Source of the DNA: Phormidesmis sp.
GTDB lineage: Bacteria; Cyanobacteriota; Cyanobacteriia; Leptolyngbyales; Leptolyngbyaceae
Reading direction: 5' to 3'
Assembly: GCA_965248535.1 (NCBI GenBank)
Contig: CBDFJR010000005.1
Span: 2,336,001-2,400,000, forward strand
Length of the DNA: 64,000 nucleotides
Positions 9,656 to 51,500 of the stretch are shown here, piece after piece (the stretch's first letter is position 1; the number at the start of each line of letters is the position of its first letter). The notes beneath the pieces were generated by a model. It did no database searches and was not told where the DNA came from. It worked only from the letters and a program-made list of their open reading frames with translations. The position numbers and the translations under genes were made by a program.

Positions 9656-9752
9656 AAAGTTGAGGTTAGGGAGTCATCAATATCCCGTTTGGAAAATGCT
9701 CCCTAACTATAGTCAAACATGGCAAGGCTTTGGCGGTCTCAATCCACAATCC

Positions 9753-30901: not shown

Positions 30902-30944
30902 CTCAGGAGTTTCTCTAATAGGTCAACGATAGTCTTAACAGGAT

Positions 30945-33278
30945 TTAATTGTCTTTTATAATCGTGAAGCGATAAGCAACGATACAAGCCGTTAATCCCA
31001 TAACTCCCAGCGTAGGCACCAGCGGAATCCAGCCGCCGCTAATCAATAGACAGTAGGATACACCCATAACCACACCACTGCTGAACAACAGCGCGATCGT
31101 AAAGCCTCTGGCATGGCGAAACCTCCAAGCAATCAGTCCTCCGACTAGGGAGCCGCTGCCGATCCACAGCACTTCAACCCAAGACGGCCACACCCACAGC
31201 AAGGGGCGGCGATCGAGCACAGCACTCAGCATCTGACTGACCATCTGAGCATGAATCAACACACCCGGCACTCGCTGCGGAAAGCTTTTCCCGTAGGGGG
31301 TTGCAAAAGAATCGCCGCTACTGGGCGCAGTCATGCCAATCAAGACCACTCGATCTCGGATGGCTTCAAGATTCATTTGTCCACTGAGTATCTGACGCAC
31401 GGTGACTTGTTGAGCAATCGTTTGCGGCGGCAGCGATCGATAGTTCAGCAAGACCTGACTTCCCCGTGCATCCAGTTGTTGGTATCCACTCACGCGATCG
31501 CTCAGTCCTAAGAACGTGGTGCTGGCTAATTTGAGATATCGCTCAGGCGTAAATGTGGGCAAAATTGGGCTAGGTTCTGCTGCAAGATAACGAAAGGCAA
31601 GCTGAACACTCAGAGCATAGGGTGTCGTGCAGGTCGCGATTGTCTTAGGGCTAACAAACAACAAGTGACGACGAATCACACTATCTTCGTCTTGCACAAA
31701 ATCACTAAAGCCAATCTTGCTAGCGCGAATGTTAGGCGGTGGCGCAACGCCCGTTAAGTCGCGAGACATCGGATCAGGACGCTTGCAAACGGCAATCAGT
31801 TGATCGCGCTGAGTTAATTGCTCTAATCGTTGTTGAAGCGAGGAATTTTGGGTGGGAAAATCGCGGTAAAGATCCAATCCGATCACACGGGGATGATAGC
31901 GCGACAGAATTTCTAGCAATCGATCGAGTGTTGCATCAGATAATGATCCGGCGTTCTGTTTTTCGATATCTTCTTCATCAATTCGCACAATCAGCAATCG
32001 TGAGTCGGGCGGCTCTGGCGGGCGAAATTGCATCAAGCGATCGAAGGTTTGCAGCTCTAGCGGTTGCATCAAGCCCAGCCCGCGAAGCAGCACGATCGCG
32101 AGGGTGACCACGAGGCTAGACTGCGCGATCGTGAGAGTCTGCGATCGCGTCAGACGAGGAAATCGTGACGGACGAGGGGCAACCCAATCTGACCAGCGCG
32201 ATGGCACCTCAGCCGGATTTTGACAAATGACTGGGAGCCAGGTTGCACACGGAAAATCGCCTTCTAACGATTGCAGTTTTTCGCGCGCTTCTCGAACGGC
32301 AACATAGAGTGATTTATCTTGAGCAAAGCCCGATAAAAAGTGTTTGAGAAAGTCTTGGGCGACCCGATCGGGCACAAGTTCTCGCATCACGATCGTTTGA
32401 GTTAGCTGCAAATCTGCTAGATCGTGGGCAAGTCCTAACCCGTCACAAGAGTTAAAGATTGCCAGTTTCAATCCATGGGCGATCGCGTTGCGCAATCCAT
32501 ATTTCAACTGTTCAACTGTGATGGTGTCAGTCTGATTAATTTGGATGCAGCCTTTTTTGCGACTATCGCTATGACCTGCAAAAAATAGAATGTTCCATTC
32601 CGATTGCCAAAGCTGATCTTGAACCGCTTGTAGAGTTGGTTCAATAAGCCATTTAATTTCAGCGTTGGGTAATTGCTGAAGGAGTTGTCGATCGCGATCG
32701 ATTTCTATTCCGTTAGCGTTACCTAGAATGCTGAGAATCTTTACTGTTTCATGATGGGGTTTGGGTTGAATTTGTATGATCTCTGTCGATCGAGCAAACG
32801 TAGACAGACTGATGGCAATTTCAGCGATCGCATAGTCAGTCAAAAAGTCCCATAGGTTCCACGGTAGCTGTAGAACTTGTAGATTATCTGCCACAATGAT
32901 TAATCGAATCGCGTCTTGAGGAGAAAGTCGAGTTCTCAGCGATCGCTCGATCGATTGGAACGAAGCAACACTCAGCCATTGATTCAGATGACGCTGAAGG
33001 GTTTGACAAAGGGCGTTGAATTCTGCTAGCGAAACGCGGGTGTTATCATCCTCCTCAATATCAAAGTCTGGCAACCGCCGCAGCCCCAAATGAGCATAGA
33101 TCGCCGAGTAGTGCGATCGCCAGCGTTGATGATCTGCCACAAACTCAGGAATTGCAGGCAGACTGCCGCTAAACTGCATCGGGGTGGGATGATCGGGTTC
33201 CCAAAGCTGCGCGAACACGCTAGGGAACCCAGTTTTCCAGTGTCCTTGTCCAAAATTGAGCACAATCACAAATTCCAT
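30945..33278 (-). CDS. CHAT protease domain + TM + CHASE2 sensor + C-terminal TM helices
   Basis: LFFAGHS / AIFNSCDG dyad; [58 protein letters not shown]2 motifs. Confidence 0.9.
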   Translation of the reverse strand: MEFVIVLNFGQGHWKTGFPSVFAQLWEPDHPTPMQFSGSLPAIPEFVADHQRWRSHYSAIYAHLGLRRLPDFDIEEDDNTRVSLAEFNALCQTLQRHLNQWLSVASFQSIERSLRTRLSPQDAIRLIIVADNLQVLQLPWNLWDFLTDYAIAEIAISLSTFARSTEIIQIQPKPHHETVKILSILGNANGIEIDRDRQLLQQLPNAEIKWLIEPTLQAVQDQLWQSEWNILFFAGHSDSRKKGCIQINQTDTITVEQLKYGLRNAIAHGLKLAIFNSCDGLGLAHDLADLQLTQTIVMRELVPDRVAQDFLKHFLSGFAQDKSLYVAVREAREKLQSLEGDFPCATWLPVICQNPAEVPSRWSDWVAPRPSRFPRLTRSQTLTIAQSSLVVTLAIVLLRGLGLMQPLELQTFDRLMQFRPPEPPDSRLLIVRIDEEDIEKQNAGSLSDATLDRLLEILSRYHPRVIGLDLYRDFPTQNSSLQQRLEQLTQRDQLIAVCKRPDPMSRDLTGVAPPPNIRASKIGFSDFVQDEDSVIRRHLLFVSPKTIATCTTPYALSVQLAFRYLAAEPSPILPTFTPERYLKLASTTFLGLSDRVSGYQQLDARGSQVLLNYRSLPPQTIAQQVTVRQILSGQMNLEAIRDRVVLIGMTAPSSGDSFATPYGKSFPQRVPGVLIHAQMVSQMLSAVLDRRPLLWVWPSWVEVLWIGSGSLVGGLIAWRFRHARGFTIALLFSSGVVMGVSYCLLISGGWIPLVPTLGVMGLTACIVAYRFTIIKDN

Positions 33279-33280
33279 GA

Positions 33281-34432
33281 CTACACCACAAAAGGTAGGA
33301 TGAGGGTGTCAGCGGCGATTGCAAGCTCTATGGTAAAGCGAGTCGCGATCGGGCATTTAAACCGTTTTAGTTGAATGAGATTGTCTTGATCGGTCGCTTC
33401 AACTGTTTGGATCATTTCACCCGCAGCCGATCCCGATCGCAGCGTTAGTTGCAGTCCGCTCGGCAGCGTAGACTGTGGATCAGCCGATCGAAGCTGAAGG
33501 CGAATAGTGAGGCGATCGGGGGAATCTGGATCGAGTTGTACGATTAACAGCAGCGATCGTTGATTGAGATCGACTACTTTGACGCGCTGAACAGAGGTTG
33601 GTGCAGTTTCAGCCCCTTGTCTAAAACTATAGGCAAGCGCATTGTTGTAATCAAACAAACTCTCTAGGCTCTGCCAACCCGCGTCAAAACTCTGCTGTAG
33701 CCAACGGCTAAGATTGACCAAAGGAGCCTTCTCTCGGCGTTGAAGATTGACTAAGCGATCGCGCCACTCAGCTTGCTCGACCAATGCGCCCCATTGGGCA
33801 AACGGCAGCACCAAGCGAGGCTCAATCACTAATGGATTCGCCAACTGCTGCAAGAGCGTTTCTGCTTGGGTGGTGGTGATTGGATTGAGCGGCGCAACGG
33901 TTGAGCGAGTCACTTCATTTAGTCCTGCCTGCTGCGCGACCCAAAACACGCTGATATCTCGAATCAGATAGGCAGCATCTAGTGAGTAAGTGCGATCGTC
34001 GGCATTATAGGTTCCCAGGGTTTTAATCTGGGCGTGAGTGGTATATCCCCAGATCCGCAGCGTTGACTCATCAGGATCGATTTGAACTGCAAAATAATAG
34101 TCCCCAATCCAACTCGACAAATCCATCCATTCTTGAGAGACTCGCAGTTCAGACGTGTCGATCGAGCAAGTGGGAATCAGAATTAATCGGCAGTCATCCC
34201 AGACGATCGAGGTTCCCTTGACCAGTTGCCAAGCCGACGTGAGTTGCGAACCTGATAACCCGCTTTGAGCCTGAGGCACATACTCAGCTTGAATCCAGGG
34301 CAACACGGTCTGCAAACAGACTGGATTGAGATAAACACTCCAAGCCTGCCCCTCAAGTTGCCTCCACGCCGCCTCTTGCACAGAGGCAGAAATCTCTAAA
34401 TTCAGATCAGTCAGACACTCTAAAAAAGTCAT
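33281..34432 (-). CDS. DUF1822-family protein
   Basis: AWSVYLN..LPW, RLILIP, ELRVSQEWMDLSSWIGDYYFAVQI, IWGYTTH, VNLSRWLQ..GWQ. Confidence 0.88.
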   Translation of the reverse strand: MTFLECLTDLNLEISASVQEAAWRQLEGQAWSVYLNPVCLQTVLPWIQAEYVPQAQSGLSGSQLTSAWQLVKGTSIVWDDCRLILIPTCSIDTSELRVSQEWMDLSSWIGDYYFAVQIDPDESTLRIWGYTTHAQIKTLGTYNADDRTYSLDAAYLIRDISVFWVAQQAGLNEVTRSTVAPLNPITTTQAETLLQQLANPLVIEPRLVLPFAQWGALVEQAEWRDRLVNLQRREKAPLVNLSRWLQQSFDAGWQSLESLFDYNNALAYSFRQGAETAPTSVQRVKVVDLNQRSLLLIVQLDPDSPDRLTIRLQLRSADPQSTLPSGLQLTLRSGSAAGEMIQTVEATDQDNLIQLKRFKCPIATRFTIELAIAADTLILPFVV

Positions 34433-34434
34433 CG

Positions 34435-35649
34435 TTATTGCTCCGAAGCGTGATTTGCCGAGGCGCGATCGTCAGAGTCATGACTAGCGTAATAGTGACG
34501 AAGCCACTCGTCTAACTCAGCCCCCATTCCTTTGATCACGTTGGAACTGACCGAAATATGTAAGGTCTCCTGACTCCAATGCACTAATTTGAGCAATAAT
34601 TGTTCTCGTGTTTTAGACAATCTGCGAGAAATCGTATATTGCTGCATCTCAAGCTCGTGGGCAATTTGCTGCTGGGTAAGCTGCTGCTGATAATAAAGGG
34701 CTAATAGTTTCTGAGTCACGGCATCTAGCGAAGCCACACTCTCTGCTAGCACCTGAGACATCTCGCGGCGCTGAGTCTGACGCTGCTGAGTGTCTTCTTC
34801 AGCAATCAGCTTCTCTAACAGCGAGGTGTGGTCATGGACTAAATCATCCTGCCACTGTCCCGATTCACGATCGCCCTTGGGTGCATTGAGTGAGGCCACA
34901 GTGGGATAAGCGCTGCTTCGCACCCGACTGGCACAATAGAGCAGCCAGCGCTCTAGCTCAACCGCAGTCGTCACCGACCCGTCGGGCAACCGTGACTGAT
35001 GATAGCGATCGACGATGACGTGCCAAGTTTTGGGGTCAGGGGCAGTCGATCGCCGCAAACCCAGCGTTTTTGCAGGTTTATAGCTGGCTTCAAAACAGTG
35101 CCACGCCAGCACAAGCTGATCAATTCTCACGCTGTTTAGCCCTTCTTGCTGCAAGACTTCGATCAAGCGCTTGCGGCTGAGTTTGAGCAACAGCCCCCAC
35201 TCGCTGCACAGGTCGATTTCGCGCCGTTGTCGTAGCCAGTCGCGCACCACGTTGCCAAAAGCGCTACTGGCATAGGTTTTCAGCGTTGCCCGACCGCTGA
35301 CTTCACAGGCTGCGAGAATTTTGGGAACCGCCGCGATCGCGATTTGAAAAAAGTCTGAGATCTGACTGCCTCGTTGAGAATGAATGATTTTTTGCACACT
35401 CCAATAGCACGCTTCTTGCAAATAGGCAGAGAGATGCCCAACTGCCAGAGATCGTTGCCCCTCTGCTTCTGATTGAGCGCATTGGTGCCAATATCGCTCC
35501 CAAAAATCGGCGGCTACCTCTGGGCGACTTTGCATCTGAGTCTTGATACTGCGCTGAAGTTTTGCATCCACACTCCAGCGAGTCGCCACGTTCGATTCAA
35601 ACTGAAGAAACGTTGAAAACAGGTCGGGGATGCTCTGACGAGGACGCAT
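34435..35649 (-). CDS. Cyanobacterial sigma-70 family RNA polymerase sigma factor-like protein
   Basis: FSTFLQF, HLSAYLQEACYW, SEWGLL, SLNAP; region 4 LLALYYQQQLTQQQIAHELEMQQYTISRRL. Confidence 0.85.
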   Translation of the reverse strand: MRPRQSIPDLFSTFLQFESNVATRWSVDAKLQRSIKTQMQSRPEVAADFWERYWHQCAQSEAEGQRSLAVGHLSAYLQEACYWSVQKIIHSQRGSQISDFFQIAIAAVPKILAACEVSGRATLKTYASSAFGNVVRDWLRQRREIDLCSEWGLLLKLSRKRLIEVLQQEGLNSVRIDQLVLAWHCFEASYKPAKTLGLRRSTAPDPKTWHVIVDRYHQSRLPDGSVTTAVELERWLLYCASRVRSSAYPTVASLNAPKGDRESGQWQDDLVHDHTSLLEKLIAEEDTQQRQTQRREMSQVLAESVASLDAVTQKLLALYYQQQLTQQQIAHELEMQQYTISRRLSKTREQLLLKLVHWSQETLHISVSSNVIKGMGAELDEWLRHYYASHDSDDRASANHASEQ

Positions 35650-35659
35650 GACAAAAACC

Positions 35660-36982
35660 TCACCACGGATTTCCTACTAGCGTAAAGGCTGCCCAGTGAT
35701 AAGGGTGAGATATGTTTGTACTGGATGCAGTCGCTTGGCTCGGCAAATCTTTGAGATGCAGTTGATTATGCAGCATTTCAAGCTGGGCGAGCCTGAGGGC
35801 TTCTGCCTTAATCGTCGCGGTTTTGAGATGCCGATAAAACGCCTGCATGAGCAATGGAGTGCTGAGATCACTGACTGACCAGAGAGACGCGATCGCGGCT
35901 TTACTCCCGGCTTGCACCGCTAGACCTGCAAACCCTAGCTCGGCGTTGCGATCGCCCAAGGCCGTTCGACAAGCGCTCAACACTAAAAGCTGCACGGGCG
36001 GCTGCTGCAATCCTAATTCTTGAAACTGATCGAGGCGAAGCTGTTGATTCCAGAACTGAATGTAAGAGCGATCGACGGTTCCAGCAGCAAACTCGGCGTG
36101 AGTCGCAAAATGCACAATGCTATAGGGAAAGCTGGCTCTCTGCTCCCGCAGATTTTTGAGCGTAAAGGCTTGATTGAGCAATTGTCTACCGCTCCAGGGC
36201 GGTTGGGTGATGGCCGCGAGTTCGAGGGGCACACCGGGCAGATCGGTCTGATGGTCAAACGTTGAGGCTCCCATTGCCAACACTTGAGTTTGAGAGGTGT
36301 TGCGGGCCGTGCGATCGAGCAAATTAAATGCGGGAATGATTGCCAGTTGGTAGGTCTCAATTAAGAACCGCTTTCCGTCGTGCAGTGCGGCGAGCGGAAG
36401 ACTTCGCAGCCCGCTTCCTAAGCAAAAAATCAATAGATCGGCGTTCCCTAAGTCTGCGGCAATAGAGCCAACCAGCCATTGATAGAGTTGTTGCCCTGGC
36501 TCAAGATATTCATCGGGCTGTGAGTCGGGACGCAGAATGCCCATGCGAAATGTCTGAATCGTCTCCCGCAATCGCACCGGATTGGCGGCGGGCACTTCTC
36601 GTCGAATCAGTTTTCCAGACTCTAAAACGAGAATCAGATCTAAGCGATCGGGCTGGGGAATGGCGTAGATCAGCGCAGCATGATGCTTTGTCTCTTGATT
36701 GATCTGGGCCAGCGATCGGGCAATCTGATCTGCTGGAACAATCTCGCTCGTGATTTTTCCCTGAAAGTAGTCTTCAAACTGCCGTTTCCAGCGTTGCTCA
36801 ACCTGCTCGATCGTGGTTGCAATCTCCGTGGTTGCAATCTCAGATGATGGCAAAACAGAGGGCGACACAACAGGCAGATCGTAGGAGTCTGACCCCGATT
36901 GAGCCGTTCCACTCTGAGCCAACATTGCTGCAAAAAGGCAAATCGACAGTGCTAGCAATACCCAAAATTGGAGTTTTCGCAT
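35660..36982 (-). CDS. Secreted CHAT-domain protease
   Basis: Signal peptide; LPLAALHDG, VHFATHA, LLVLSACRTALG, ASLWSVSD, HPYHWAAF. Confidence 0.92.
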   Translation of the reverse strand: MRKLQFWVLLALSICLFAAMLAQSGTAQSGSDSYDLPVVSPSVLPSSEIATTEIATTIEQVEQRWKRQFEDYFQGKITSEIVPADQIARSLAQINQETKHHAALIYAIPQPDRLDLILVLESGKLIRREVPAANPVRLRETIQTFRMGILRPDSQPDEYLEPGQQLYQWLVGSIAADLGNADLLIFCLGSGLRSLPLAALHDGKRFLIETYQLAIIPAFNLLDRTARNTSQTQVLAMGASTFDHQTDLPGVPLELAAITQPPWSGRQLLNQAFTLKNLREQRASFPYSIVHFATHAEFAAGTVDRSYIQFWNQQLRLDQFQELGLQQPPVQLLVLSACRTALGDRNAELGFAGLAVQAGSKAAIASLWSVSDLSTPLLMQAFYRHLKTATIKAEALRLAQLEMLHNQLHLKDLPSQATASSTNISHPYHWAAFTLVGNPW

Positions 36983-37239: not shown

Positions 37240-38622
37240 TCAAATGGGTAACGTAATAAAAAATTCTGTTCCCGTTCCGAGTTCAGATACACAATCAATC
37301 ATTCCACCATGTTTTTCTACAATAATTTGGCGACTGATCGGCAATCCTAATCCTGTTCCTTTTCCGACAGGTTTTGTTGTAAAGGACGGTTCAAAAATAT
37401 GGGACTGAATCTCAGGAGGCATTCCCGCTCCGCTATCTTTAATCTGAATCGTAATCTGATCTTTTGAAGCGCTCACTGTAGTAGTGATGAGAATGTTGGT
37501 AGATGCACCAATTTCTTGATAAGAAAGACCGTGAATTGTATCTTCGATCGCGTCAATAGCGTTGGCAATTATGTTCATAAACACCTGATTAAGTTGCCCC
37601 GGATAGCACCTAATCGGCGGCAAATCTCCAAACCGTTTGATGACTTGAATCTCTGGATGACGATCGCAGGCTTTTGTGCGATGTTTGAGCAGCATTAGTG
37701 TGCTCTCAATGCCTTCATGAATTTGAAACTCAGTTTTGGCTGAAATATCCGATCGAGCAAAAGTGCGTAACGACAAACTAATATCTCTCAGACGATTGAT
37801 CCCTTCTTGCATCGACACAAGCAGATTCGGCACATCTTCTATTAAATAGTCTAAATCAATTTCTTGAGTTAAATCGATGAGTTCTGGATCGGGATTTTGT
37901 AGCTTTGCTTGATATAAATTCAATAAATTAAGTAAGTCTCTTGTATAGTCTGTAACGTGCAAAAGATTACCGCTAATAAAATTAATTGGGTTGTTAATTT
38001 CATGACCAATGCCAGAGATTAACTCACCTAATGTAGACATCTTCTCACTTTGAATGAGTTGTAATTGAGTTTGACCTAGCTTTTGCATTGAGTCGGTTAG
38101 AGCAGCGGTGCGTTCGTCAACACGGCGTTCTAGCTCTTGGGCTAACTGTTGTAGTTGAGCCTCTGTCTCTGCCTGTTGAACTATTTTTTGCTGTAGTGAC
38201 TCATTTTTTTGTTCAAGGGCCTGAGCCAGCTTAGAAAGTTTTAAATGCAGCTTAATTCGAGCAATTACTTCTTCTTGTTGAAAAGGTTTAGTGATGTAAT
38301 CAACGGCCCCAAGTTCTAACCCTTTAACCTTATCAACGGCATCAGATAAAGCCGTCATAAAAATAACCGGAATCGCTTGTGTAGAAGCCCTAGCTTGAAG
38401 ATGCTGACAGGTTTCAAACCCATTCATGCCGGGCATCATCACATCTAACAAAATCAGGTCGGGGTGAGCATAGTCTGCTTGTTCGATCGCTGATTCACCA
38501 TCGGCAGCAACGAGCGTCATCCAGCCCTGTCCTCGAATCGCTTCAGCCAGCACTTTCAGGTTAGTCGGGTTGTCATCAACGAGCAGAATGCGGCTTGTGG
38601 TCAACTGAGCATCAGACATCAT
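37240..38622 (-). CDS. Hybrid response regulator-histidine kinase (REC-HisKA-HATPase)
   Basis: [60 protein letters not shown]. Confidence 0.95.
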
Positions 38623-41360
38623 GAGAGTGAGCCTATAGTTGAAAATGACTTCAGAAATTTGCGAATTTTACCTGTCTGATACTCTGCGGTGAGTTTGCTA
38701 AGTTCAGTCGTGAACCCTTTGAACTGATGATTTCTCGCGGTCATGTCTCTTAGAATGCCCTCGATCGTTTGCACATCTCCCATCATGGCCAGATGATAAA
38801 GCTGATCGATAACCGCTTGGTCAGGAAGAATCATTTCGTCAGCGGTAACTGCAACGTCAATGCGTTGAGAATCATAAATCCACTCAAGTTTTAACAGAGT
38901 TTGCAACGTGTCTAACAACGTCTCAGCCTGCAAAGGTTTTGCCAAAAAGATGTCTGCACCTGTCTGCAAGCTACGCTGGTGATCAGCCTCAAAAGCGCTG
39001 GCGCTCACCACCACGATCGACAGGGAATTTGTTTGCGGATTGTCTCGAAGATGATGGATTAGTTCAAAACCGTCCATCACAGGCATCGAGAGATCTAGAA
39101 TCACCGCATCGGGCTGATTTGTTAGGGCAGCAGTGAGTCCTTGTTGACCATCATCAGCTTCAAAAACGTGAAATCCCAGGCTCTGTAGTAGGGTAGCCAG
39201 ACCCGATCGGTGATTGAGATCGTCATCGACAATGAGAATCCGAGGCACAACGTGCTGAATGCCGATAATTTTTTGGCGATCGGGCACCGTTGTCAAGTCG
39301 TCCCAATCGTGCGAGATCGGCATGTTTAGATCAATCGAGAAGACACTTCCTTCTCCCAGTCGGCTCTGAACGGTGATTTGACTAGCCATCTGAGCAACGA
39401 TCTTGTGGCTAATTGCCAGCCCTAATCCCGTTCCCTCCGCTTTGCGTCTCGCGTCTCCCGCTTGCTCAAACGGCAAAAAGATTTTTCCCACCTGTTCAGG
39501 TGAAATGCCGACTCCGGTGTCTTCAACTTGAAATTGCAGTTTACACGTCGATGAGTCAACTTGTTCAACCAGCAGCACCCGAAAGGTAACGCTGCCCTGA
39601 TCCGTGAACTTGATGGCGTTTCCTAATAAGTTGATCAACACCTGCCGCAATCGCTTTTCATCCGTCAGAATGCCAGAGGGCAAGCGATCGCTGAATGCCG
39701 CTTCAAACCCAATCCCTTTCTGTTCAGCGCGAATTCGACAAATCTCAGTCACTCCCTTCAAAAAGACTGGCAAATGAACTGGAATCGGCTGCAACTCTAA
39801 CTTACGCGCCTCAATTTTTGACAGATCTAAAACGTCATTAATCAACATCAGCAAGTGAGAACCGCACTGATGAATGATGCCGATTCCTTCTAAATCTTTG
39901 GGAGCCAGCGTTGGCGATCGCTCTAAAACTTGGGCATAGCCGAGAATGCCGTTGAGCGGAGTGCGAAGTTCATGACTCATGTTCGCTAAAAATTCGCTCT
40001 TTGCCTGATTAGCTGAATCCGCTAATTGCTTGGCTTTTACCAATTCATGAGTCCGTTCTTCGACCTTGACTTCTAGATTTTTAGAGTAGTCGAGTAGCTG
40101 ACTGTTGGCTGCTTCTAATCGGCGATTTGCGTCTTCTAAATGTTGCTGTTTGTGAGCCAGCGTTGTGGCGATGATACTGCCCAAAAACGACACCATAACT
40201 GGAGTCATTGGCACCAGCGCATGGTTCAAAAACAATCCATAGACTCCACTACTCATGCTCACTCCGGCTCCCACCGTTGCCCAGAGAATCTTGCCCCCCG
40301 GAATGCGGCTTTTGCGACCACCCGCTAGCCACCAACTGCCGACCGATCCAATTAACGATCCCAGCACAATCCAACCAGTTTGCTCACCGCCTGAGAAAGC
40401 CCTCAAATTTTGCTGTCCTACCTTAGCTGATTGCACCAGATGATAGGCAATATTGGCGTGAACTACCACACCCGGAGTCGGCTTTTGAGCCGAAACCCAG
40501 GAAGAACTGTAGGGAGTGCTGAAAAAATCATTGGTGCTGGCAGCGATCGAGCCAATCAACACCATGCGATCGTGCATCACCTCCGCCGGAACTCGACCCG
40601 CCAAAACGTCGCGCATTGCCACCGTCCGAAATGCTTTTTCTGAGCCGTGCCAGTTGAGAAGAACTTGATAACCGCCTAAATCAGCCTCAGAATATCCAGC
40701 TTCTTGGGGCTTTAATGGCATGTACACTGATTTTCCTAGTCGAAACGTTTGCTGATGGGGATCAACACTTTCTAGCGTTATGCCGTCGGCTTCGAGATAT
40801 TTGAGGGCAACGCTAGCTGCAAGTCCGGCTTTGAGGGTGCCTTGCTCTTTGGTGTCTTCCGCCGTCAGCAGGGCACGACGAATATGGCGATCGCCGTCCA
40901 ATACTAAATCCGCTATTGCGACCTGATCGAGCTTTTTTAGCTCAGGGGGCGGACTGACGCGATCGCCCGTAATTTTCTCAACTCCAATCAAATTTGGAGT
41001 TGTTTTAAACACGCTCACAAGCTTTTCATGACCCGTTCCTTCGGGTAAGTCTCGATAGAGGTCAAGCCCGATCGCTCTCGGCTTCTGCGCCCGAATTTTT
41101 TCTATCAACTCAGCCAGCGCCCAATCAGGAATCGGCCACTTCTGCACGGATTGAATATCTTGCTCATCAATCGTCACCACCACGATAGAGTCGGCAAAGG
41201 TCTCTGAAGAGCGCAACCGAAACAACTCATCTCGTGCTTTCCACTCTAATAAATTAAAGAGTCCTAACGACTGACCTGCCATCACCGTCAACGCCACACT
41301 GGGAGCCACAATCAAGATGCTGCGGTTGCGATAAAAAAAGGTTTTGAGTGTTCGCCACAT
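38619..41360 (-). CDS. CHASE2-domain hybrid sensor kinase (CHASE2-TM-HisKA-HATPase-REC)
   Basis: [68 protein letters not shown]; alternative start at 41399. Confidence 0.95.
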
Positions 41361-41407
41361 AGAATTGATATCAGCAGATAGGGGCAGGTTAGCGGGCATT
41401 TAAACAG

Positions 41408-41445
41408 GATCGGGTGCGTTGTGAATTGTCTTAACGCACCCGATC
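41408..41445. terminator. 13-bp perfect stem-loop downstream of DUF928
   Basis: gatcgggtgcgtt / aacgcacccgatc. Confidence 0.55.
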
Positions 41446-41497: not shown

Positions 41498-42556
41498 CTA
41501 ATGAGCCGAGATCACCAAGGGTGCTTGAGCGATCTCCTTTAAGCCCACTGACGATAGAAGCTCAGACCAATCTTTAGCGAGGGCGGCACTGTTTGACTGA
41601 GTGGCTCTTAGGGTCGCTAAGGTGGCTACGCAGTCATACCACACGCCGTTGGCACCTAGAGCAGTCGCTTGTTTGAGCACATCGGGCTGTTTGAGCGCAG
41701 AGGCTAGCGCAGCACCCGGCTGAATCCGGCGAACCCAACCATTGACATAGGGCGTGCTGGGGCTGAGTTTTCCATCAACTTTCAGCGCTAAGAACCACTG
41801 ATAGTTTTTTCCTATCTCTAAAGCTAGAGCCTCGGCAGGAAGTTTGACCGCCATGATTCCTGTCTGACCTGACACAGGCACCGTCATTTGAGTGTGGGTG
41901 TTTCCGGCTTCATCTTTGAGACTGAAGACTGCTTCCTTGGCGATCGAGGCGGGGAGATAAACCAAAATCGTCGGATGGGCAGACACTGTAGTGCCATAGA
42001 AGGTTTGGGGCAAAACCGCAATCATTGCCAGGGGAGTGTCTGATTTTGAACCCGCGATCGCGGCTGCATTGAGCGGATAGTTCCCCACTCGCGATGCCCC
42101 CCCTGATCCTTGGCTCGGCGCACCATTGCCCGCTGCTGGAGTGAACACTTGCCCCCGTGATGCCCCCCCTGATCCTTGACTCGGAGCGCCATTGCCCGCT
42201 GCTGGAGTGAACACTTGCCCTCGCGATGCGCCCCCCATTGAGCCGTGGGGCGATCGCTGTCCCGAAGTCGGAGTAAACAGGCTACCCCGTGAGGCTCCAC
42301 CCGTCGATTGAACGGGCACAGCATTTTTAGCAGCAGGTGAAAAGAGCACCATTCCCCGTGATGCCCCCCCTGTCGATTGACTCGGAGCACCGCCCCCCGA
42401 TGGTGGTGTAAAGGTAACCGCTTGGGCATTTCCGACTGAAATGAATGCACTAGTGGCAATCAGGGCAATGCCTAAAGAAAACTGGTTGGTCATCTTCTGG
42501 AGATTGGCAGCGCCGATTGCACTTAACCGATTTGTTAACCCTGGATATTTCATCAT
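41498..42556 (-). CDS. DUF928 family secreted protein with five GGASR(G)-ending repeats
   Basis: Signal-like segment ending AQA; five ~22-aa repeats; GTTVSAHPTILVYLP, YQWFLAL, GWVRR, NGVWYD. Confidence 0.9.
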   Translation of the reverse strand: MMKYPGLTNRLSAIGAANLQKMTNQFSLGIALIATSAFISVGNAQAVTFTPPSGGGAPSQSTGGASRGMVLFSPAAKNAVPVQSTGGASRGSLFTPTSGQRSPHGSMGGASRGQVFTPAAGNGAPSQGSGGASRGQVFTPAAGNGAPSQGSGGASRVGNYPLNAAAIAGSKSDTPLAMIAVLPQTFYGTTVSAHPTILVYLPASIAKEAVFSLKDEAGNTHTQMTVPVSGQTGIMAVKLPAEALALEIGKNYQWFLALKVDGKLSPSTPYVNGWVRRIQPGAALASALKQPDVLKQATALGANGVWYDCVATLATLRATQSNSAALAKDWSELLSSVGLKEIAQAPLVISAH

Positions 42557-42704
42557 GATTTTGCTGAGGAGAAAAGGTCAGGGTCAAATGGTTTCCCAAG
42601 TTTGACCCTCAATTCATCCTAGAGAGGTGAGTCTAGAATTCTCTGAGAAGGTTTGCGTATCTTTTGACTCTGGGAGCCGTAGTATCACTGAAATTTAAGT
42701 AGCT

Positions 42705-45249
42705 CTACTGCCAGTTGCCTACGAGCACAAACCCTGACCAGAAGAATGGCTCCCGGAAGTCTGATTTGCGAATTAATTCGATTTGAGCTTGGCGAAGCGC
42801 CTCTGCTTTGCTGACCCCTGGTTGGCGAAGCTGCTGGTAGAAGTGAGCCATCAACCGAGCCGCCGCTTGATCTTTAACGGGCCAAAGAGTGGCTAGGGTT
42901 GATCGCGCCCCTGATTTAATCGCCAGCCCGGCAAGACCGAGAACCGCCCGATCGTCCCCACTGGCGGTGTCACAGGCGCTCAAGACCAAGAGTTCGATCG
43001 CTTGGCTGCCTTCTCGACTTCGCAGGAGTTCTGAAAGCTCTTTGACGTTGACTCGCCCATCCCAAGTGAGCAGAAAGGTATTCTCAAGCTGGGAGCTAAA
43101 CTGTCCGTGGGTCGCCAGGTGCACGATATTGGCATGGCTGTTTCTGACGCGATCGGACAGGGCTTTGTTCGTAAATTCCTGGTTGAGCAGCTTGGAGGAA
43201 GACACGATTTGAGCAATGTCTTGCACTTCTGACTCGACCGCAGGCAGAGACGCAAAGCCCGATCGAGACTGACTAATGCCGCCTACGATCGCGCTAATGT
43301 TGGCAGAATTCAGCGATCGTGCTCCCATTAACTGCAAGCCCGGTGAGAGCGTGACCGCATAGTTTTCAATCAGATAGTGCTGTCCATCATGCAGGGCCGC
43401 CATCGGAATATTTCGCAAATGCCCATCCAGCACAAATACCAGGGTTTTGGTGTGTTTAAATGCCTGATCTTGTTCTGCGGGACGAATCAGCCAATCATAA
43501 ACCTGCTGAGACAACTGCTGACGCTGTTTAGCATCTGCAACGGGATTGAGGGATACAAAGAGATCATCCAGGGTTTTCTCGACTTCAGCTTGGGGTTTGG
43601 GCGTGACATAGTAGCGCAACGGCTCCCCGGCAGTAGACAGAATGACCGCGAGACGATCGGGCAAAATAATCGGATAAACAACGGTTGCTGTAGGATCAAC
43701 CTGATCAATTTGCTTCACCTTGTCCAAACACGCTTCTCGGAAAAAGTTATCGAGTTCTGCAACTTGTAGGGCTTCGATCAAGCCACGAGCTTGAGTCAGC
43801 GCCGCTTGACTCGGTTGAGCATCAAGTAATAAACTCACCAACTCTCGATAGACTGGCTCAACGCTTTCGCGAAAGGAGAACTGCACATCGGCACTCACTG
43901 CCATCAGATCGCCTCGAATAGCTTGGAGAGCAGCCACTGCCTCAGTGTAGTGCGCGATCGCGTCCGATCGATTACCCTGATCCCGATCGAGCCGACCTAA
44001 CTGCCATGCCGATTGAGCAATCAGGTTGTCAGCCCGAAGTTGACGGGCGATCGTGAGAGATTGTTGGGTAACAATACGGGCTTCTGCTATTTGGTGAGTT
44101 CGAGTATATAATCTGTCCCCATTGTTGAAGAGCATAGGCTTCGGCTTGAGTATCCTGAATGCGCTGAGATGACTGCACCGTGCTGGAAAGCAGTTGAGAC
44201 AAAGCTTTCAGAGGCAAAACCTGAGAGGGATCGTCCAGTCTATTTAGCGTGGAGACAAAGTGAATCGCTCCATAAAGAGACGCATGACTGTCCGAGAGAT
44301 CGGCAAATTGTTGATAGATCTGAGTTGCAAGCGGGGCAGCCAGTTCGATTTTTTCGTGGTCAATCAAGAGCTTCAGACGATCGAGACGGGCTTGCAGTTG
44401 CTCTAGTGGATTAGTAGTCGTAGAGTGTTCTGCCTGCTCAAAATAATTCAAGGCAGCATCTGGGTCACCGAGATCGGCTGTAGTTTTGCCCAGAGCGAGG
44501 AGAATAGAGTTGAGGTCAGATGTGGCATTGAGCTTGCGAGCGATCGCCAATCCCTGCTCTAAAACTTTTTGGCTGTTGCTAGCATCCCCCATCGTTTGCA
44601 AAGCTGCACCAAGGGTTCGTAACCCGCTGACCTTAATGTCAGAATCGGGTTGGCTGGCAAGCTTTTGATTGAGCGCTTCTAATTGCTGTCGAGAACGACG
44701 ATAAAACCCCAGCGTTTGCATCGCCTGAGCCTGGTTGATTTGACTGCCTATACTTCCTGTTGAATCGCCTGCTTGGTCGTAAAGTTTTTGGGCTTGTTGC
44801 CAGGTGCTGAGGGCAGATTCAGCATGGCCCGTGTGGAGGAACAATCCAGCCTGAGTGTTGAGTATCTGTGCCCAGACAATCGCATCAGCACTAGGCTTGA
44901 CAGCTTTAAGAATCTGCAAGCTCTGCTCGATCGAGCGTTTAGCATCTTCCCACTGCGTCAATTCTTGCTGGGCCAATGAGCAATAGCTCAGGCTTAGGGC
45001 TTGATTTAAGCGATCGCCTTGCGTCTGATAGTGCTGTGCGGCAGCTTGCCACGCCATTACCGCCTCTACATAGCGCCCTGAGCGATAGAACGTGCGCCCC
45101 TGATCTAGCGAAGACGGAGCTACGATCGTAGAGGGAGACGCAACAGGGGGCATGGTTGCCACTACAGGGTGAGTAGCAATCGCGACCCACAAACTGAGAA
45201 CACTCAAACTGACCGACAGCCAACGGGGTTGATGCGATCGAGCAATCAT
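42705..45249 (-). CDS. Secreted TPR-CHAT protease, frameshifted at ~44112
   Basis: Signal peptide + TPRs (44029-45249) join TPR-CHAT (42705-44135) if one A is removed (WGQ-LYTRT); VHLATHG / LVLSACDT dyad. Confidence 0.88.
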
Positions 45250-45265: not shown

Positions 45266-48183
45266 TCAACGGTTAGCAACCGCACACGTTTCGGGGGCGC
45301 TGCCAGGGTTAGTGTTCCCATTTGTGGTTTGAGCTACCAGTTCTATAGTGCCGTTGGGGTTGCGAGTCCAATTGGTAGCTTCGATCAGAGGTTTTTTGGG
45401 GAGAAGGGCATCCTGGGCGATCGCGGGCGGTGTGTTCTGAAACGCTGATAAATCTCGCAGGTCAGACCAAGCCCGATCGCTGCTCACCTGCTCAGTGGGA
45501 TTGGTGGGCAAACCACCGCGTCCGGTCACCACAAAGCTATTGCTGTGGTTGCTCGTACAGCCTTGGGCAATTTGGTTGCTGGAGTCAGTCAAATTCGCAG
45601 GCAGTGTTCCTAAACCAGAATTAGGGTCAATGCCAATATTATTGATTTGCACGTTGCCATTGACACTAAATTCGGAACTAGCCGTAATGTCGTTGGTCAG
45701 GTCAGTTCGAGGAGTGAGCGTGTTGCGAAACGCTAGACCAATGATTCCTTGAGTGGTGATATCAATGTTGCCGCCCCGACCTTTGACCGCGTTGGCAATA
45801 ATGTCGCTGTTTTCTAACCCAGCAATAATTGGGGCAGCGATCGTGATGTTGCCGCCATTGCCATCTCCGCCTGCGGTTGCCACAAGTTGACTGCCCTGCC
45901 GCAGAAGCAGTAAGTCTTGGACTTGCAGATTAATGTTCCCGCCCTGTCCAGCAGCAGTTGACGCTTCGATGCTGCCATTCTCCAGCACCACGGTTTTTGC
46001 CTGAATGTTTAACTGTCCCGCGTTGCCTGTACCCTCGTGCTTGACGTTGATAGTTCCCTGATCGCGGATGGTGAGCCGATTGGTTGAGATGCTGACTGTG
46101 CCCGTATCGCCAGTCGGAAAATCTGGCAGCCCATAGAACTGGCGAGTGGTCTGGCTCAAAATCGTAGCATTGGAGACGATCGAGGAGTTTTGAAACTTCT
46201 TTCCCTCCACCAAAATGTCCTCTGCTTGGATCGTTAAGGTTCCCGCATTGCCTGTTGCCCCCGTGAAAGCATTAATCACTGCCCCATCTCGCACCTGCAA
46301 TTGACGGGTTTTAATCATCACATTGCCCCCATTGCCGCTGCCTAAGGTGGATGTACCCACATCACTGGCCCCCTTAGTGATGGGATTGCTGCCACTCACT
46401 TCAATCTGATCGGCAATGGTCAGCGTTACATTCCCCGCATTTCCCAAGTTGTTAGTCTGGGCGCGATCGCCAAAAGCGCCAACCACAGGCAATGAACTAG
46501 TCCCCAATCCACCACCAGCTTGAATGGACAGCTTGGACGCGGTGACCGACACAGAGCCAGTATTGCCTGCTCCAGCCGTAGCACTGCCGACGTAACTTAC
46601 TTGAGTTGGCTGGTTTGGGCTGAATCCCGCGATCACGATCGCATCCCGTGCAACAACTGTAATACTACCTGCGTTGCCAATACCAGTATCAGGAATGCCT
46701 GCAATCCGAGTCACAAAGGTGATAATTGCTCCACTATCTACCAGGCTTAACTGGTCGGTTGAGACATTCACTGCGCCACCATTGCCAATTCCTAGGGTGT
46801 AGGTCTGAATTCCGCTAGTGGTGAAGCTTAAGGGGCTAAACCCGATCGCCGTAATGTCTGAGGCATTGACTGCAATGTTGCCGCCCTGCCCGGTGGCTCC
46901 AGGCAACACATAGGTGGCAATTTGCCCACTCTCTGTCAGGGTAATTTGTCGTGCTGCCACGTCAACGTCACCGCCTGCACCAGACCCATAGACCGTGCTC
47001 GAAATATGGCTACTGCTGCTGCCACCTGCAAACAGCGGCGAATTCACCAGCACAGTGCCATCAGCCAGAATCGTGTCTGCCCTGACTTGCACTTTCCCGG
47101 CGGCTCCCGATCCCAGGCTAAAGGTTTCTATCCCAGCTCCATCTTGCAGAGAAAGGTTTCCTGTTTGAATGTTCACCGCGCCGCCGTTGCCCATTGCGCC
47201 AGGAGCCACTTGGTTTACAATCCAAGCGCTGGGTGCTTGGGCGTTAGCGGTGACTCCACCTAGAATGAGCGATCGTTGGGCATTGACGGTAATCGCGCCG
47301 CCCTGACCTGCACCCGCAGTAGCCGCAGCAATCTGAGATTGATTCAGGGTAATATCGCGCCCGACGACTTGAATTCCCCCAGCCAAGTTGCCCACCGGGT
47401 CAGGATTCCACAGCGAGGAGCGATTGATCAAATTCACATCCCCCAACACTTGGACTTGAGAGTATCCCAGTTGCCAGCCTGCGGGAGTAGGAGTGAGGCT
47501 GACCAACCCACTCTCGACTGCGCCCACTTCAATCCGCCCGGCTGGCGCTGTGATCACTCCACCTGTAAACCTAACGTTGCCACCCACAAGCGCGATCGTT
47601 TTCCTGGGCTGCTGATGATACCTAGATTGCTGGTGGGCACAATGCCATCATTGCCGTTTCCCTGCACCTGAATGTCCCCTGTTCTAGCGTAAAATTGCAG
47701 CCCAGTAGGAACGCTGATCGTCAACAACGGTGTAGCTGTTGGATTGACCGCACTAAACTCGACTCCATCAGCAAATTTGACACTGTTGGCAGTGGTGCCG
47801 ATGAATGAACCCCCCATATTCAACGCGGCATTGGGCCCAAATAAAATGCCACTGGGGTTGAGTAGAAATAAATTGGCCGTGCCGTTAGTCTGAATTACGC
47901 CATTAATGTTGGAAACCATGCCACCTGTGACGCGGCTGAAGATATTTTGCACATCTGCCGCGTTATTAAAACTGGCAGCGCCACCCGTGGGAACAGAAAA
48001 TTGACTAAAGCTATGGAATAGGTTGTTGCCGACGCGATCGCCATCATCAATCGTAAACCGATTCCCGCTTTGGGTCACACGAGTCGAAAGGGTGCCATCA
48101 GGGGTAACTTGAGCGATCGCACGTCCTGCCAATCCACTTAACCCGACTCCAATTATGATCAACCCTGCGATCGCTTTCATCAC
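45266..48183 (-). CDS. Filamentous haemagglutinin-like TpsA protein, frameshifted at ~47600
   Basis: [35 protein letters not shown] domain; Gly/Asn-rich repeats; [11 protein letters not shown]-terminus. 1-nt deletion (ggaaaacgatc) relative to the paralogue (ggaaagacgatc). Confidence 0.9.
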
Positions 48184-48257
48184 ACTATTCCTGCCAGAAC
48201 TATCGCTAGAGTACCCAAAGGAGCGATCACAGTGACTCAGCGATGAATTTGATGAAT

Positions 48258-51179
48258 TTAGCGATCGGCTTTGCTAGATTCCAACAAATCGCTCCCTGCA
48301 CACGTTGCAATCTGGGCAACCGGAATGGGTTGAGCTGCGACGAGTTGGATTTCGCCATCATAGTTGCGCTGCCAATTGGTAGCCTCGACTAATCTGGGAG
48401 TCGGTTCGAGGGTGGCAATGTGATGAGAGTCTGAGAGCGGACGGAGATCTTGCCAGGTACGATCGCTGCTCACCTGCTCAGTGGGATTGGTGGGCAAACC
48501 ACCGCGTCCGGTCACCACAAAGCTGCTGCTGTGGTTGCTCGTACAGCCTTGGGCAATTTGGTTGCTGGAGTCAGTCAAATTCGCAGGCAGTGTTCCTAAA
48601 CCAGAATTAGGGTCAATGCCAATATTGTTGATTTGCACGTTGCCATTGACACTAAATTCAGAACTAGCCGTAATGTCGTTGGTCAGGTCAGTTCGAGGAG
48701 TTAGAGTGTTGCGAAACGCCAGACCAATGATCCCTTGAGTGGTGATATCAATGTTGCCGCCGCGACCTTTGACGGCGTTGGCAATGATGTCGCTGTTTTC
48801 TAACCCAGCAATAATTGGGGCAGCGATCGTGATGTTGCCGCCATTGCCAGTACCACCAGCCGTCGCCGTAATCTCGCTGCCTTGCCGCAGCAAGAGAATG
48901 TTCCGCACTCGTAGGGTAATATTGCCACCCTGCCCAGAAGCAGTTGAGGCTTTGATGCTGCCAGTCTCCAACAACACAGCGGCTGCCTGAATGGTTAACT
49001 GTCCAGCATTACCAATACCTTGGTGATTGACACTAACAGTCCCCTGATCGCGAATCGTGAGCCGATTGGTCGAGATGTTGAGCGTTGCGGTATCGCCCGT
49101 CGGGGATGCGGGCAAGCCATAAAACTGTCGCGTCGTCTGGTTCAAGATTGGTGCACTAGCAGCGATCGAGGAGCGCTGACTGTTCCTGCCCTCCACGAGA
49201 ATGTCTTCCGCCTGGATTGTCAACACTCCCGCATTGCCTGTCGATTCAGTTACAGCGCTAATCGTGCCACCGTCCCTTACGAGCAGTTGCTTTGTTTTAA
49301 TTGTCACGTTGCCCCCATTGCCATTGCTAAAAGCAGTTGAACCGAGAGGGCTGGGCGTTTGGGTAAAGGGATTGATGCCACTCACCTCAATTCGCTCGGC
49401 AGCATTCAGGGTGACATTTCCCGCATTGCCTAAGTTATTAGCCTGGGTGCGATCGCCAAACAGGCCTACAACAGACTGAGTGGTGGTGCCCAAGCCACCA
49501 CCAGCTTGCAAGGAAAGCCGCGGCGTGGTGACTGACACATTGCCACTGTTGCCTGATCCCACCGTCAGACTGCCCAAAAAGCTGATCAGGTCTGGTTTGT
49601 TTGGACTGGTACCCGTGATGGTAATCGCCTCCCGTGCTGTTACCGTGATGTCGCCAGCGTTCCCAATGCCTGTACTAGGAATGCCAGCAAGGCGAGCGGT
49701 GCCAGTAAGCACCTCGCCACCGCTGACAAGATTGAGTCGATCGGTGGAAAGGTTCATTGCGCCACTATTGCCAATGCCTAGCGTATAGGTTTGAATCCCA
49801 CTCGGCACCAAAGTCAAGGGGTTGAAGCCGCTGATCAAAATAGCGGACGCATTGACGGTGAGATTGCCGCCCTGTCCTGTGGCTCTTGGCTGGACAAAGG
49901 TATTAATTTGCCCACTGTCTGTCAAGCTAATTTGCCGTGCCGCCACGTCAATATTTCCTCCGGCTCCAGATTGATAAACCGTGCTGGAAATGCGGCTGGC
50001 GCTGCTGCCAGTGATAAGCAAGGGCGACTTGACCAGCACTGCGCCTGTAGCTGTAATGGTATCGGCGGAGACTTGGATGTTGCCAGCGGCACCCGCTCCA
50101 AGGCTCAATGTCTCGATCGCCGCCCCATCTTGCAGCGATACGTTGCCCGCCTGGATTGTAACCGTTCCCCCCTTCCCGGTCGCTCCGAGATTGACCAGAT
50201 TGACAATCCAGGCACTTGGTGCGAGAGCATTAGGCGCAATGCCGCCGAGGGTCAGCGATCGCTGGGCGTTCACCGTTACATTGCCCCCAACACTATTGCG
50301 TAGCGTTGCCGCCGCAATCTGGGATTGGTTTAAGGTGACATTGCGCCCAACTACTTGAATGCCCCCAAACGGATTGCTGGCAGGATAGGGATTCCACAAC
50401 GACGATCGCGCATTGAAACTTACATCTTGTAACGCCTGTGCTTGTGCATAACCCAATTGCCACCCTGCTGGCGTAGCGGTCAAACTGACGGTGCCGCTGT
50501 TCACTGCGCCCACTTCAATCCGTCCGGCTGGCGCTGTGATCACTCCACCTGTAAAATTCACATCGCCGCCCACCAGCCCGATCGTCTTTCCTGGGCTCCC
50601 GACGATCCCTGGATTCGCTGTGGGAAACATCGCATTATTGCCCTTGCCCTGTACTTGAATTCCCCCCTTGCTGCCGTTGAACTGTAGTCCGATCGGTACG
50701 CTAATTGTCAACAGCGGTGTAGCTGTTGGATTGACCGCACTAAACTCGACTCCATCAGCAAATTTGACACTGTTGGCAGTGGTGCCGATGAATGAACCCC
50801 CCATATTCAACGCGGCATTGGGCCCAAATAAAATGCCACTGGGGTTGAGTAGAAATAAATTGGCCGTGCCGTTAGTCTGAATTACGCCATTAATGTTGGA
50901 AACCATGCCACCTGTGACGCGGCTGAAGATATTTTGCACATCTGCCGCGTTATTAAAACTGGCAGCGCCACCCGTGGGAACAGAAAATTGACTAAAGCTA
51001 TGGAATAGGTTATTGCCGACGCGATCGCCGTCATCAATCGTAAACCGATTCCCGCTTTGAGTCACACGAGTCGAAAGGGTGCCATCTGGCACGACTTGCT
51101 GCCCTTGAGCTACCCCCGACCCGATCAGCAATCCTAGCCCACTAGCGGTCAACCCCCGGATCAATAACTCAACGCCCAT
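48258..51179 (-). CDS. Filamentous haemagglutinin-like TpsA protein (intact)
   Basis: Signal peptide, TPS domain (NLFHSF, NPSGI), beta-helix repeats, [18 protein letters not shown]-terminus. Confidence 0.93.
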
Positions 51180-51500
51180 AGTCCGGCATCACAAATCAGA
51201 GCAGACCTAACGTTCCCTGAACGGCTCAAGGAATCGCTATTGGATCAGCATGGGACATTTTGACGATCGCCGCTTTATTTAGAACAGCAAGCCAAAAATC
51301 GAATTGGACTAAATGTGCTCGCAAAGTTAGCAAAACGGATTGTGTGACCATACTAGCGGCTAAGTCGGCTGTATTCTCCTTCATCTCGCTCGCCATAAAC
51401 TTAGAAGCCTCGTTGACAAAGAGGTTGAACCTCCCACTGCTGTTCAGCGCGGACTTGTTCCATCCCCCCATTGATTCCCCCGTTGATAGCCCCCAATCCT

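Follow-up and report, generated by a model that had tools for sequence, protein, structure and literature searches.

Background

The CHASE2 sensor domain was defined in 2003. What CHASE2 domains sense is described as unknown in the accessible text of PMC5192318. Two described systems come close to the subject of this study, a DUF928 gene with an array of tandem peptide cassettes, located on the minus strand of a 64,000-nucleotide stretch of a Phormidesmis sp. genome (contig CBDFJR010000005.1, positions 2,336,001 to 2,400,000; hereafter the window). MtxA, according to the part of its description that is accessible, carries a signal peptide and is encoded directly before a gene for a CHASE2-adenylate cyclase; it crystallized only once trypsin had removed residues 25-141, a stable core remaining, and its mutant is reported to have no phenotype under standard conditions (PMC4439547). 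For the cyanobacterial CHAT protease HetF, the accessible text places the cut in PatU3 after R117 and states that the replacements R117A, R117D, and R117H block it (PMC9457339).

The DUF928 gene of the window stands between the genes of a caspase-like protease (TPR-CHAT) and a CHASE2 histidine kinase, an arrangement that suggests a protease-operated signalling module. A neighbourhood of CHASE2 and DUF928 in one Nostoc strain is noted in passing in the accessible part of PMC5587647. In the article texts searched, this is the one paper that mentions DUF928, and no mention was found of the tandem array, its correspondence to the family motif, a general pairing of DUF928 with CHASE2, or the link to MtxA; the same search returned no paper joining CHASE2 with a CHAT domain, and sll1891 only in a WD40 paper.

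The cassette array and its conservation

Translation of the DUF928 gene reproduces the five tandem cassettes quoted in an earlier note on this DNA, each ending in GGASR (Table 1). The near-identity of the last two at 66-bp spacing, also stated there, is found as well: cassettes 4 and 5 have the same protein sequence and a DNA identity of 92%, and they are the only pair reported by Tandem Repeats Finder (42090-42236, period 66, 2.2 copies, 91% matches). Chance is excluded as the origin of the array, as GGASR occurs five times in a 111-amino-acid (aa) region vs a maximum of two in 100,000 residue shuffles (a value reached in 2 shuffles). The six-frame translation of the window contains no second site with at least three GGxxR motifs at 18-26-aa spacing. 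The Pfam profile of the family (PF06051) matches the 352-aa protein with an E-value of 3e-54 (184 bits, cut-off 26) over residues 152-347 and profile positions 2-184 of 184, so the DUF928 profile starts at the last GGASR.

Signal peptides of the homologues comprise ~25 aa and are followed directly by V/I-T-F-T-P-P. Since the first motif in the homologues starts at about residue 43, i.e., ~20 residues earlier than in the 352-aa open reading frame (ORF), the true start is probably M22 (42493), 21 codons into the ORF; the leader would then measure ~25 aa and end in AQA|V. The number of cassettes in the sample may differ from that in the assembly, because the short-read contigs of two public runs, X1 and X2 (holding 96% and 90% of sampled words, respectively), break off to either side of the duplicated 66-bp cassettes (about 42136-42204), and the word depth of X2 reaches 74.7 in the bin containing them (42093-42323) vs about 29 and 32 on its flanks.

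A search over 5.8 billion proteins gave 566 matches among 8,000 candidates scored, and the figures that follow refer to the best 120 listed. Strict cassettes (GG[AGST][ST]R) occur three to eight times, at a spacing of ~22 residues, in 118 of the 119 homologues among these matches: three copies are present in 6 proteins, four in 20, five in 59, six in 27, seven in 5, and eight in 1. The remaining listed homologue (P0084) has GGAAR variants instead of the strict motif. Lengths of the listed homologues cluster at 306, 328, 350, and 372 aa. The array, compared in this way, is a conserved feature and no local oddity; its repeat number, for which the earlier note had proposed a survey, varies even within one cluster at 90% identity (7, 7, 6, 7, 6, and 4 copies, always in frame).

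The consensus of 604 cassettes reads x-L-F-T-P-x-x-G-x-G-A-P-x-Q-A-T-G-G-A-S-R-G. Outside positions -4 to 0, the conservation of which is built in by the search pattern, the most constant residues are F(-18) and P(-16) (93% each), P(-9) (97%), and Q(-7) (88%). The Arg is followed by Gly in internal cassettes, and by V or L and then G-T in the last one. Similarity is highest between adjacent cassettes (0.76) and amounts to 0.69 for cassettes of the same index in different proteins vs 0.61 for those of different index. Pure concerted evolution is rejected by the latter two values; cassettes of the same index being more alike, the array is old and has been remodelled by local duplication.

With the array alone as a query, matches were obtained in 35 of 301 genomes of the class, mostly one per genome. 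With few exceptions, the matching frames measure 309-405 aa and also encode the DUF928 domain. A clear case of an array on its own did not come up in these genomes: all complete frames contain the domain, the shorter frames, at least some of which reach a contig end, being left aside. A search of the ESM Atlas with the cassette region gave no usable match.

The cassette as the motif of the DUF928 family

An exhaustive profile-free search (E ≤0.001) found 4,191 clusters (50% identity), a lower bound for the size of the DUF928 family. Among the best 150 of the 4,191, the strict GGxxR pattern is absent from 43, single in 63, double in 17, and present three to seven times in 27. Residues F138, P140, P147, and R156 are conserved at 90% or more in an alignment of 126 family members (A1), as are F42, P47, P48, P53, R63, and C66 in an alignment of 90 single-motif members (A3). 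On the evidence of these alignments, the cassette is an amplified copy of a family-wide N-terminal DUF928 motif, F-x-P-P..P..G-G-x-x-R. The Arg, on whose conservation across DUF928 the earlier note had staked its proposal, is thus retained in the family at large (R156 in A1 and R63 in A3), and the single equivalent motif that the note had described in a second DUF928 gene of the window (30137-30901) is indeed present (FDPP..GGGHRG).

In single-motif members (A3), a nearly invariant Cys lies 3-5 residues past the motif Arg, and a second Cys is common within the β-sandwich (ALxC). The multi-cassette subfamily lacks both, a pattern that fits a disulfide lost when the motif was amplified.

Three DUF928 genes are present in the source genome. 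Within a sample of the phylum, the domain occurs in 68 of 201 genomes, with up to 16 matches per genome, and in none of the 82 genomes belonging to one family. NCBIfam holds no model for either DUF928 protein of the window or for the CHAT ORFs. No longer, fused DUF928 forms (617-2000 aa) were found at E ≤0.001, which is weak evidence.

Pairing with CHASE2 receptors

On the minus strand of the window, the order of genes is as follows: two TPS exoprotein genes, TPR-CHAT, DUF928, a kinase with CHASE2, HisKA, HATPase, and receiver domains, and a receiver-kinase. The CHASE2 kinase contains hydrophobic segments at residues 27-47 and 394-412, between which residues 48-375 would form the periplasmic domain, and its gene begins 99 bp downstream of DUF928, which is the same adjacency as in MtxA. 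A record from the Nostocaceae is among the members of the orthologue cluster of this kinase (P0365). The neighbouring CHASE2 kinase to which the earlier note referred recurs directly downstream in all nine multi-cassette loci with enough flank. The receiver-kinase gene is kept further downstream in L004, L005, L007, L008, L009, and L043, and L006 ends inside it.

The pairing extends beyond the multi-cassette form. A first sample comprised 27 loci with 28 DUF928 genes (24 loci found with the window protein, P0001, and the three of the source genome), and a CHASE2 gene adjoins 23 of the 28. In a second sample, drawn independently of P0001 (the 20 top matches by Pfam score, from 20 genomes), CHASE2 is adjacent in 15 cases, three of which are near-identical and come from one genus; one case is ambiguous, and CHASE2 is absent in four. 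Outputs of the CHASE2 partners are diverse and include histidine kinase-response regulator, PAS-cyclase, GGDEF, and GGDEF-EAL modules as well as N-terminal AAA_35 or CHAT domains. Receptors of ~900 aa with AAA_35 followed by CHASE2 lie beside single-motif DUF928 genes in genomes of the Pleurocapsales type (L017, L023, L025, L026, and L027). Tandem DUF928 pairs with no CHASE2 gene within 6 kb are encoded in L059 (5905-7611) and L063 (5125-6762). As CHAT differs between modules and loci (fused and cytoplasmic, separate and exported, or absent), it is CHASE2, and not CHAT, that is the constant partner of the DUF928 family.

The TPR-CHAT protease and the second module

An exported CHAT protease, as judged from predicted leaders, is a frequent neighbour of DUF928 and accompanies the multi-cassette form almost without exception. 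Of 20 distinct multi-cassette loci, all but L009 have a CHAT gene immediately upstream (19 of 20), and a Sec-type leader is predicted for the N-terminal ORF of the window and for all five full-length TPR-CHAT orthologues read, in agreement with the adjacent secreted TPR-CHAT of the earlier note. In the first sample, 9 of the 21 single-motif DUF928 genes have a separate TPR-CHAT gene as a neighbour. Five small genomes with DUF928 that were checked for an absence of CHAT all contain four to seven CHAT matches.

The TPR-CHAT of the window keeps its catalytic His and Cys motifs. Its reading frame changes at QQWGQ|LYTRT, near 44110-44129, due to one extra base in comparison with five intact orthologues (843-870 aa); L007, for example, has an intact copy at 7293-9830. 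The reality of this frameshift is doubtful, because every X1 or X2 contig covering the site has one base fewer, at 44110 or 44113; an error of the assembly or a rare variant is the probable explanation, with the reservation that X1 and X2 are possibly the window's own source and hence not independent evidence on the point.

The second module of the window includes, besides a separate CHAT protein with a signal peptide, a fusion of CHAT and CHASE2 encoded next to the single-motif DUF928 gene (Table 1). Its CHAT domain is probably cytoplasmic, since the fusion has no leader and its first membrane segment lies at residues 380-407; such a protease could not reach a periplasmic DUF928. The order (TPR-)CHAT, DUF1822, CHAT-CHASE2, DUF928 recurs in L044, L046, L049, L054, and L055, and L057 and L062 contain DUF1822, CHAT-CHASE2, and DUF928 only, with no recognised CHAT gene upstream.

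Hairpins around the DUF928 gene

Both hairpins that the earlier note placed around the gene (42580-42609 and 41408-41445) fold. In 11 of 13 other loci, a hairpin at least as strong as -19 kcal/mol forms in the spacer between DUF928 and CHASE2, the sequences being unrelated; of the upstream spacers, 2 of 9 form one. A scan for canonical terminators around the DUF928 gene gave no site, and neither hairpin fits such a terminator. The recurrent hairpin fits an expression of DUF928 above that of the receptor; taken together with the in-frame changes in copy number, it gives the locus a seemingly dosage-like behaviour.

Fold of the DUF928 domain

An AlphaFold2 model of the window protein (P0001, 126 sequences) contains a folded core with predicted local distance difference test (pLDDT) values mostly above 90. 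The cassettes are modelled at a pLDDT of 50-70 (the last one below 50), with short strands drawn at 60-70. In the single-motif paralogue (P0002), the F-x-P-P part of the motif reaches ~76, and residues 58-62 (GGGH, preceding the Arg) fall below 50. Given these low values in both proteins, the motif looks like an exposed linear segment, and it is predicted to be flexible. An accessible P1 Arg, the feature looked for in a CHAT substrate, would correspond to the invariant motif Arg within this segment.

The best structural match of the core is the C-terminal domain of MtxA (4z29_B; Z 10.6, root-mean-square deviation 4.0, 150 of 169 residues, model residues 177-346). The alignment spans both subdomains, i.e., the Ig-like sandwich and the TPR-like helices, at an identity of 11%, and Foldseek also retrieves MtxA (4Z29) with an E-value of 4.6e-4. 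The next matches (Z 8.1 and about 7) cover the sandwich only, and the other rows are generic Ig, FN3, and CBM sandwiches (Z 6-8). No sequence homology between DUF928 and 4Z29 was detected with profiles of A1 (E ≤1) or A3 (E ≤10). Searched against the PDB by sequence, A1 and A3 gave chance-level matches only, and the alignment of the CHASE2 region (A2) gave kinase and receiver matches only. The family-wide link to CHASE2 and the parallel with MtxA make the folded DUF928 domain a credible partner of CHASE2 receptors.

Proposed mechanism and alternatives

The interpretation favoured here, tentatively and with somewhat less than even confidence, is that DUF928 is a periplasmic partner of CHASE2 and that the DUF928 cassettes are cut after Arg by TPR-CHAT. 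The protein, which is encoded by the middle gene of a conserved operon and has its motif amplified to five ~22-aa copies, would be exported by the Sec route, and its MtxA-like Ig-plus-helical domain would serve as the periplasmic partner of the CHASE2 sensor. Each cassette would act as a recognition and cleavage site for TPR-CHAT, which would cut after its invariant Arg. In this scheme, the array would constitute a multi-site substrate, through which periplasmic protease activity could lead to a graded change at the receptor, the tail being trimmed off the DUF928 domain and 22-aa peptides being shed. We infer each of the steps involved, namely export to the periplasm, binding of DUF928 to CHASE2, cleavage after Arg, and the signalling consequence. 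An invariant Arg within a flexible segment, a small residue next to it, and an adjoining gene for an exported CHAT together make a credible cleavage site.

Several observations speak against this interpretation. The motif and its Arg are equally conserved in loci with no CHAT gene in the flank read (L009, L010, L014, L016, L017, L023, L026, and L027), and also where the adjacent CHAT is cytoplasmic (e.g., the CHAT-CHASE2 fusion of the window); hence, the motif need not exist for CHAT. The Cys that follows the Arg in single-motif members, together with the second Cys common in the sandwich, suggests a segment pinned to the domain, not one released from it. CHAT proteases differ in specificity, type III-E Craspase cutting after Leu or Met. 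The TPR-CHAT of the window reads frameshifted, a change that is absent from the public contigs. Finally, a search for proteins that fuse DUF928 to CHASE2 or to CHAT gave none, which is weak evidence.

The earlier note regarded the protein as a possible multi-copy peptide precursor. In a strict form of this proposal, TPR-CHAT would cut every R|G, the 22-aa peptides would be the CHASE2 ligands, and the folded domain would be only a carrier. The parts of the proposal that stand are the conservation of the Arg, the adjacency of CHAT and CHASE2, the predicted signal peptide of TPR-CHAT, the hairpins, and the precedent of the Arg-specific CHAT protease HetF. Near-identical units that vary from four to seven copies within one 90%-identity cluster and are conserved over the full 22 aa, beyond the residues around the Arg, are what such a precursor would display. 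The start of cassette 1 at the signal-peptidase site would give all products the same form; the Gly after the Arg in internal cassettes and the V or L after the last, and the hairpin behind the gene, a feature of many precursor genes, point the same way. The proposal fares worse with the rest of the family: most members carry a single motif with conserved Cys following, in part with no CHAT nearby or with a cytoplasmic one, and the constant partner is CHASE2 rather than CHAT. The array has never been seen apart from the 200-aa folded domain (its matches in the 301 genomes lie nearly always in the 309-405-aa frames), which is the best-conserved part of the protein and has an MtxA-like fold with its own link to CHASE2. 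A strict precursor seems unlikely.

The same cassettes might remain uncleaved and form a multivalent docking array for the TPR domain of TPR-CHAT or for CHASE2, recruiting or clustering these partners; the copies could, for example, activate the caspase-like protease by proximity or cross-link receptors. TPR domains commonly bind extended peptides, and a linear motif that combines predicted flexibility with conserved residues throughout its 22 positions would suit such a role. Retention of the motif in loci with no CHAT gene would be accounted for by CHASE2 as the binder, and the disulfide-like Cys pair of single-motif members is more suggestive of a motif displayed than of one shed. However, an invariant Arg with a small residue beside it, next to a member of an Arg-preferring protease family, resembles a cleavage site, and free variation of copy number among close relatives is hard to square with a scaffold of defined stoichiometry; docking is a doubtful explanation, though one to be reckoned with. 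A purely structural role, in which a Pro/Gly-rich extended or β-rich stalk would set the reach of DUF928 across the periplasm, agrees with the change of length by whole units (3-8 copies), the high content of Pro and Gly, and the short strands of the AlphaFold2 model (pLDDT 60-70). The confidence of the model is low over the array, a spacer has no need for F, P, Q, and GGASR at 88-100% conservation, and the same motif in single-motif relatives would be left unexplained, which renders this role very unlikely. Still more improbable, and hardly to be expected at all, is a tag unrelated to CHAT and CHASE2 that directs DUF928 to the TPS transporter or is modified: genes for TPS exoproteins and TpsB do flank the operon, and TPS genes recur in many loci, but DUF928 lacks a TPS domain, TPS genes are missing near many DUF928-CHASE2 pairs, and the neighbourhood contains no conserved modifying enzyme.

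Other features of the window

Coordinates of the features are collected in Table 1. One of the two TPS paralogues is split near 47599-47608 into ORFs 47554-48183 (TPS domain) and 45266-47587 (no Pfam match); in two frames, it is 72-84% identical to the intact exoprotein, and no listed X1 or X2 contig spans the split. In the second module, the sigma-like protein has a weak NCBIfam match (E-value 7e-7, below the cut-off) to the sigma factor of type III-E CRISPR systems. A gene for a 1252-aa fused hydantoinase A/B of the oxoprolinase type (26310-30068, plus strand) abuts this module and has no evident link to either module.

Table 1. Features of the DUF928 locus and its surroundings, in window coordinates
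Feature	Position	Strand	Description	Basis
DUF928 gene	41498..42556	(-)	352 aa as longest ORF	translation, Pfam PF06051
Signal peptide region	42419..42556	(-)	residues 1-46, ending AQA|V	hydrophobic segment 26-44, homologue comparison
Five-cassette array	42089..42418	(-)	21-23 aa per unit, all ending GGASR; Arg = R67, R90, R112, R134, R156	
Cassette 1	42356-42418	(-)	V47-R67	translation
Cassette 2	42287-42355	(-)	G68-R90	translation
Cassette 3	42221-42286	(-)	G91-R112	translation
Cassette 4	42155-42220	(-)	G113-R134	translation
Cassette 5	42089-42154	(-)	G135-R156	translation
Folded DUF928 core (predicted)	41522..42046	(-)	about residues 171-345; seven-strand β-sandwich, then four helices	AlphaFold2
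Stem-loop between TPR-CHAT stop and DUF928 start	42580..42609	(-)	-18 kcal/mol, z -3.3	
Stem-loop between DUF928 stop and CHASE2 kinase start	41408..41445	(-)	13-bp stem; -27.1 kcal/mol, z -5.25	
CHASE2 hybrid histidine kinase with receiver	38619..41399	(-)	926 aa; CHASE2 36-352, HisKA, HATPase_c, Response_reg	Pfam
Receiver-histidine kinase	37240..38622	(-)	last gene of conserved operon	Pfam
TPR-CHAT protease gene	42705..45249	(-)	two overlapping ORFs, 44029-45249 and 42705-44135	Pfam TPR, CHAT
Two TPS-domain exoprotein genes	45266..51179	(-)	48258-51179 intact (973 aa), 45266-48183 split	Pfam TPS
ShlB/FhaC-type outer-membrane transporter (TpsB)	51471..53327	(+)	divergent	Pfam ShlB, POTRA_2, Omp85
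Second module	30137..36982	(-)	signal-peptide CHAT, sigma-70-like, DUF1822, CHAT-CHASE2 fusion, single-motif DUF928	Pfam, translation
Separate CHAT protein	35660-36982	(-)	440 aa, signal peptide; second module	
Sigma-70-like protein	34435-35649	(-)	404 aa; second module	
DUF1822	33281-34432	(-)	second module	
CHAT-CHASE2 fusion	30945-33278	(-)	CHAT N-terminal; second module	
Single-motif DUF928	30137-30901	(-)	second module	

Comparison with known systems

Multi-core precursors are known from several groups and include the cyanobactin PatE-type precursors of ribosomally synthesized and post-translationally modified peptides, yeast alpha-factor, and animal prohormones. The array resembles them in its tandem near-identical units, a conserved processing-like site, a copy number that varies, and an adjoining protease gene; they consist of little more than a leader and cores, whereas DUF928 arrays are borne on a 200-aa folded domain within a mostly single-copy family. 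In its most far-reaching form, the comparison would have a caspase-like periplasmic protease of filamentous cyanobacteria cutting a polyprotein to 22-aa peptides ending in GGASR, with these peptides or the trimmed DUF928 as CHASE2 ligands. This form is rather unlikely; if true, it would amount to a peptide-hormone pathway like that of Spaetzle and Toll, in which copy number would represent the signal dose and MtxA a distant proteobacterial counterpart.

HetF and PatU3 of Anabaena PCC 7120 provide the nearest parallel on the side of the protease. As in the window, the CHAT is TPR-associated, and the cut at R117|S118 has its counterpart in the Arg and small residue of DUF928; PatU3, however, is described in the accessible text as a cytoplasmic regulator (PMC9457339) and has one site and no repeats, whereas DUF928 and TPR-CHAT both carry predicted export signals. 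Should the protease link hold, it would give a bacterial relative of caspases an extracytoplasmic role in multicellular cyanobacteria. The array itself offers an experimental handle: a cut site and a peptide can be predicted from it, its copy number varies naturally, and the gene next door encodes a candidate protease.

On the side of the receptor, the LysM-FecR proteins of Burkholderia and relatives are, like DUF928, secreted accessory proteins encoded beside a CHASE2 kinase; they belong to an unrelated domain family, and the accessible text describes no repeat array or protease gene for them (PMC5192318). MtxA of Magnetospirillum gryphiswaldense (MGR_0208, 4Z29) is closer. As far as its accessible description goes, it shares with DUF928 the Ig-plus-helical fold, the signal peptide, and the adjoining CHASE2 gene, and it differs in sequence, with 11% identity and no profile match. 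The comparison connects a large cyanobacterial DUF928 family, the structure of MtxA, and CHASE2 receptors with all kinds of output, and it suggests that the partner of CHASE2 is a protein and not a small molecule.

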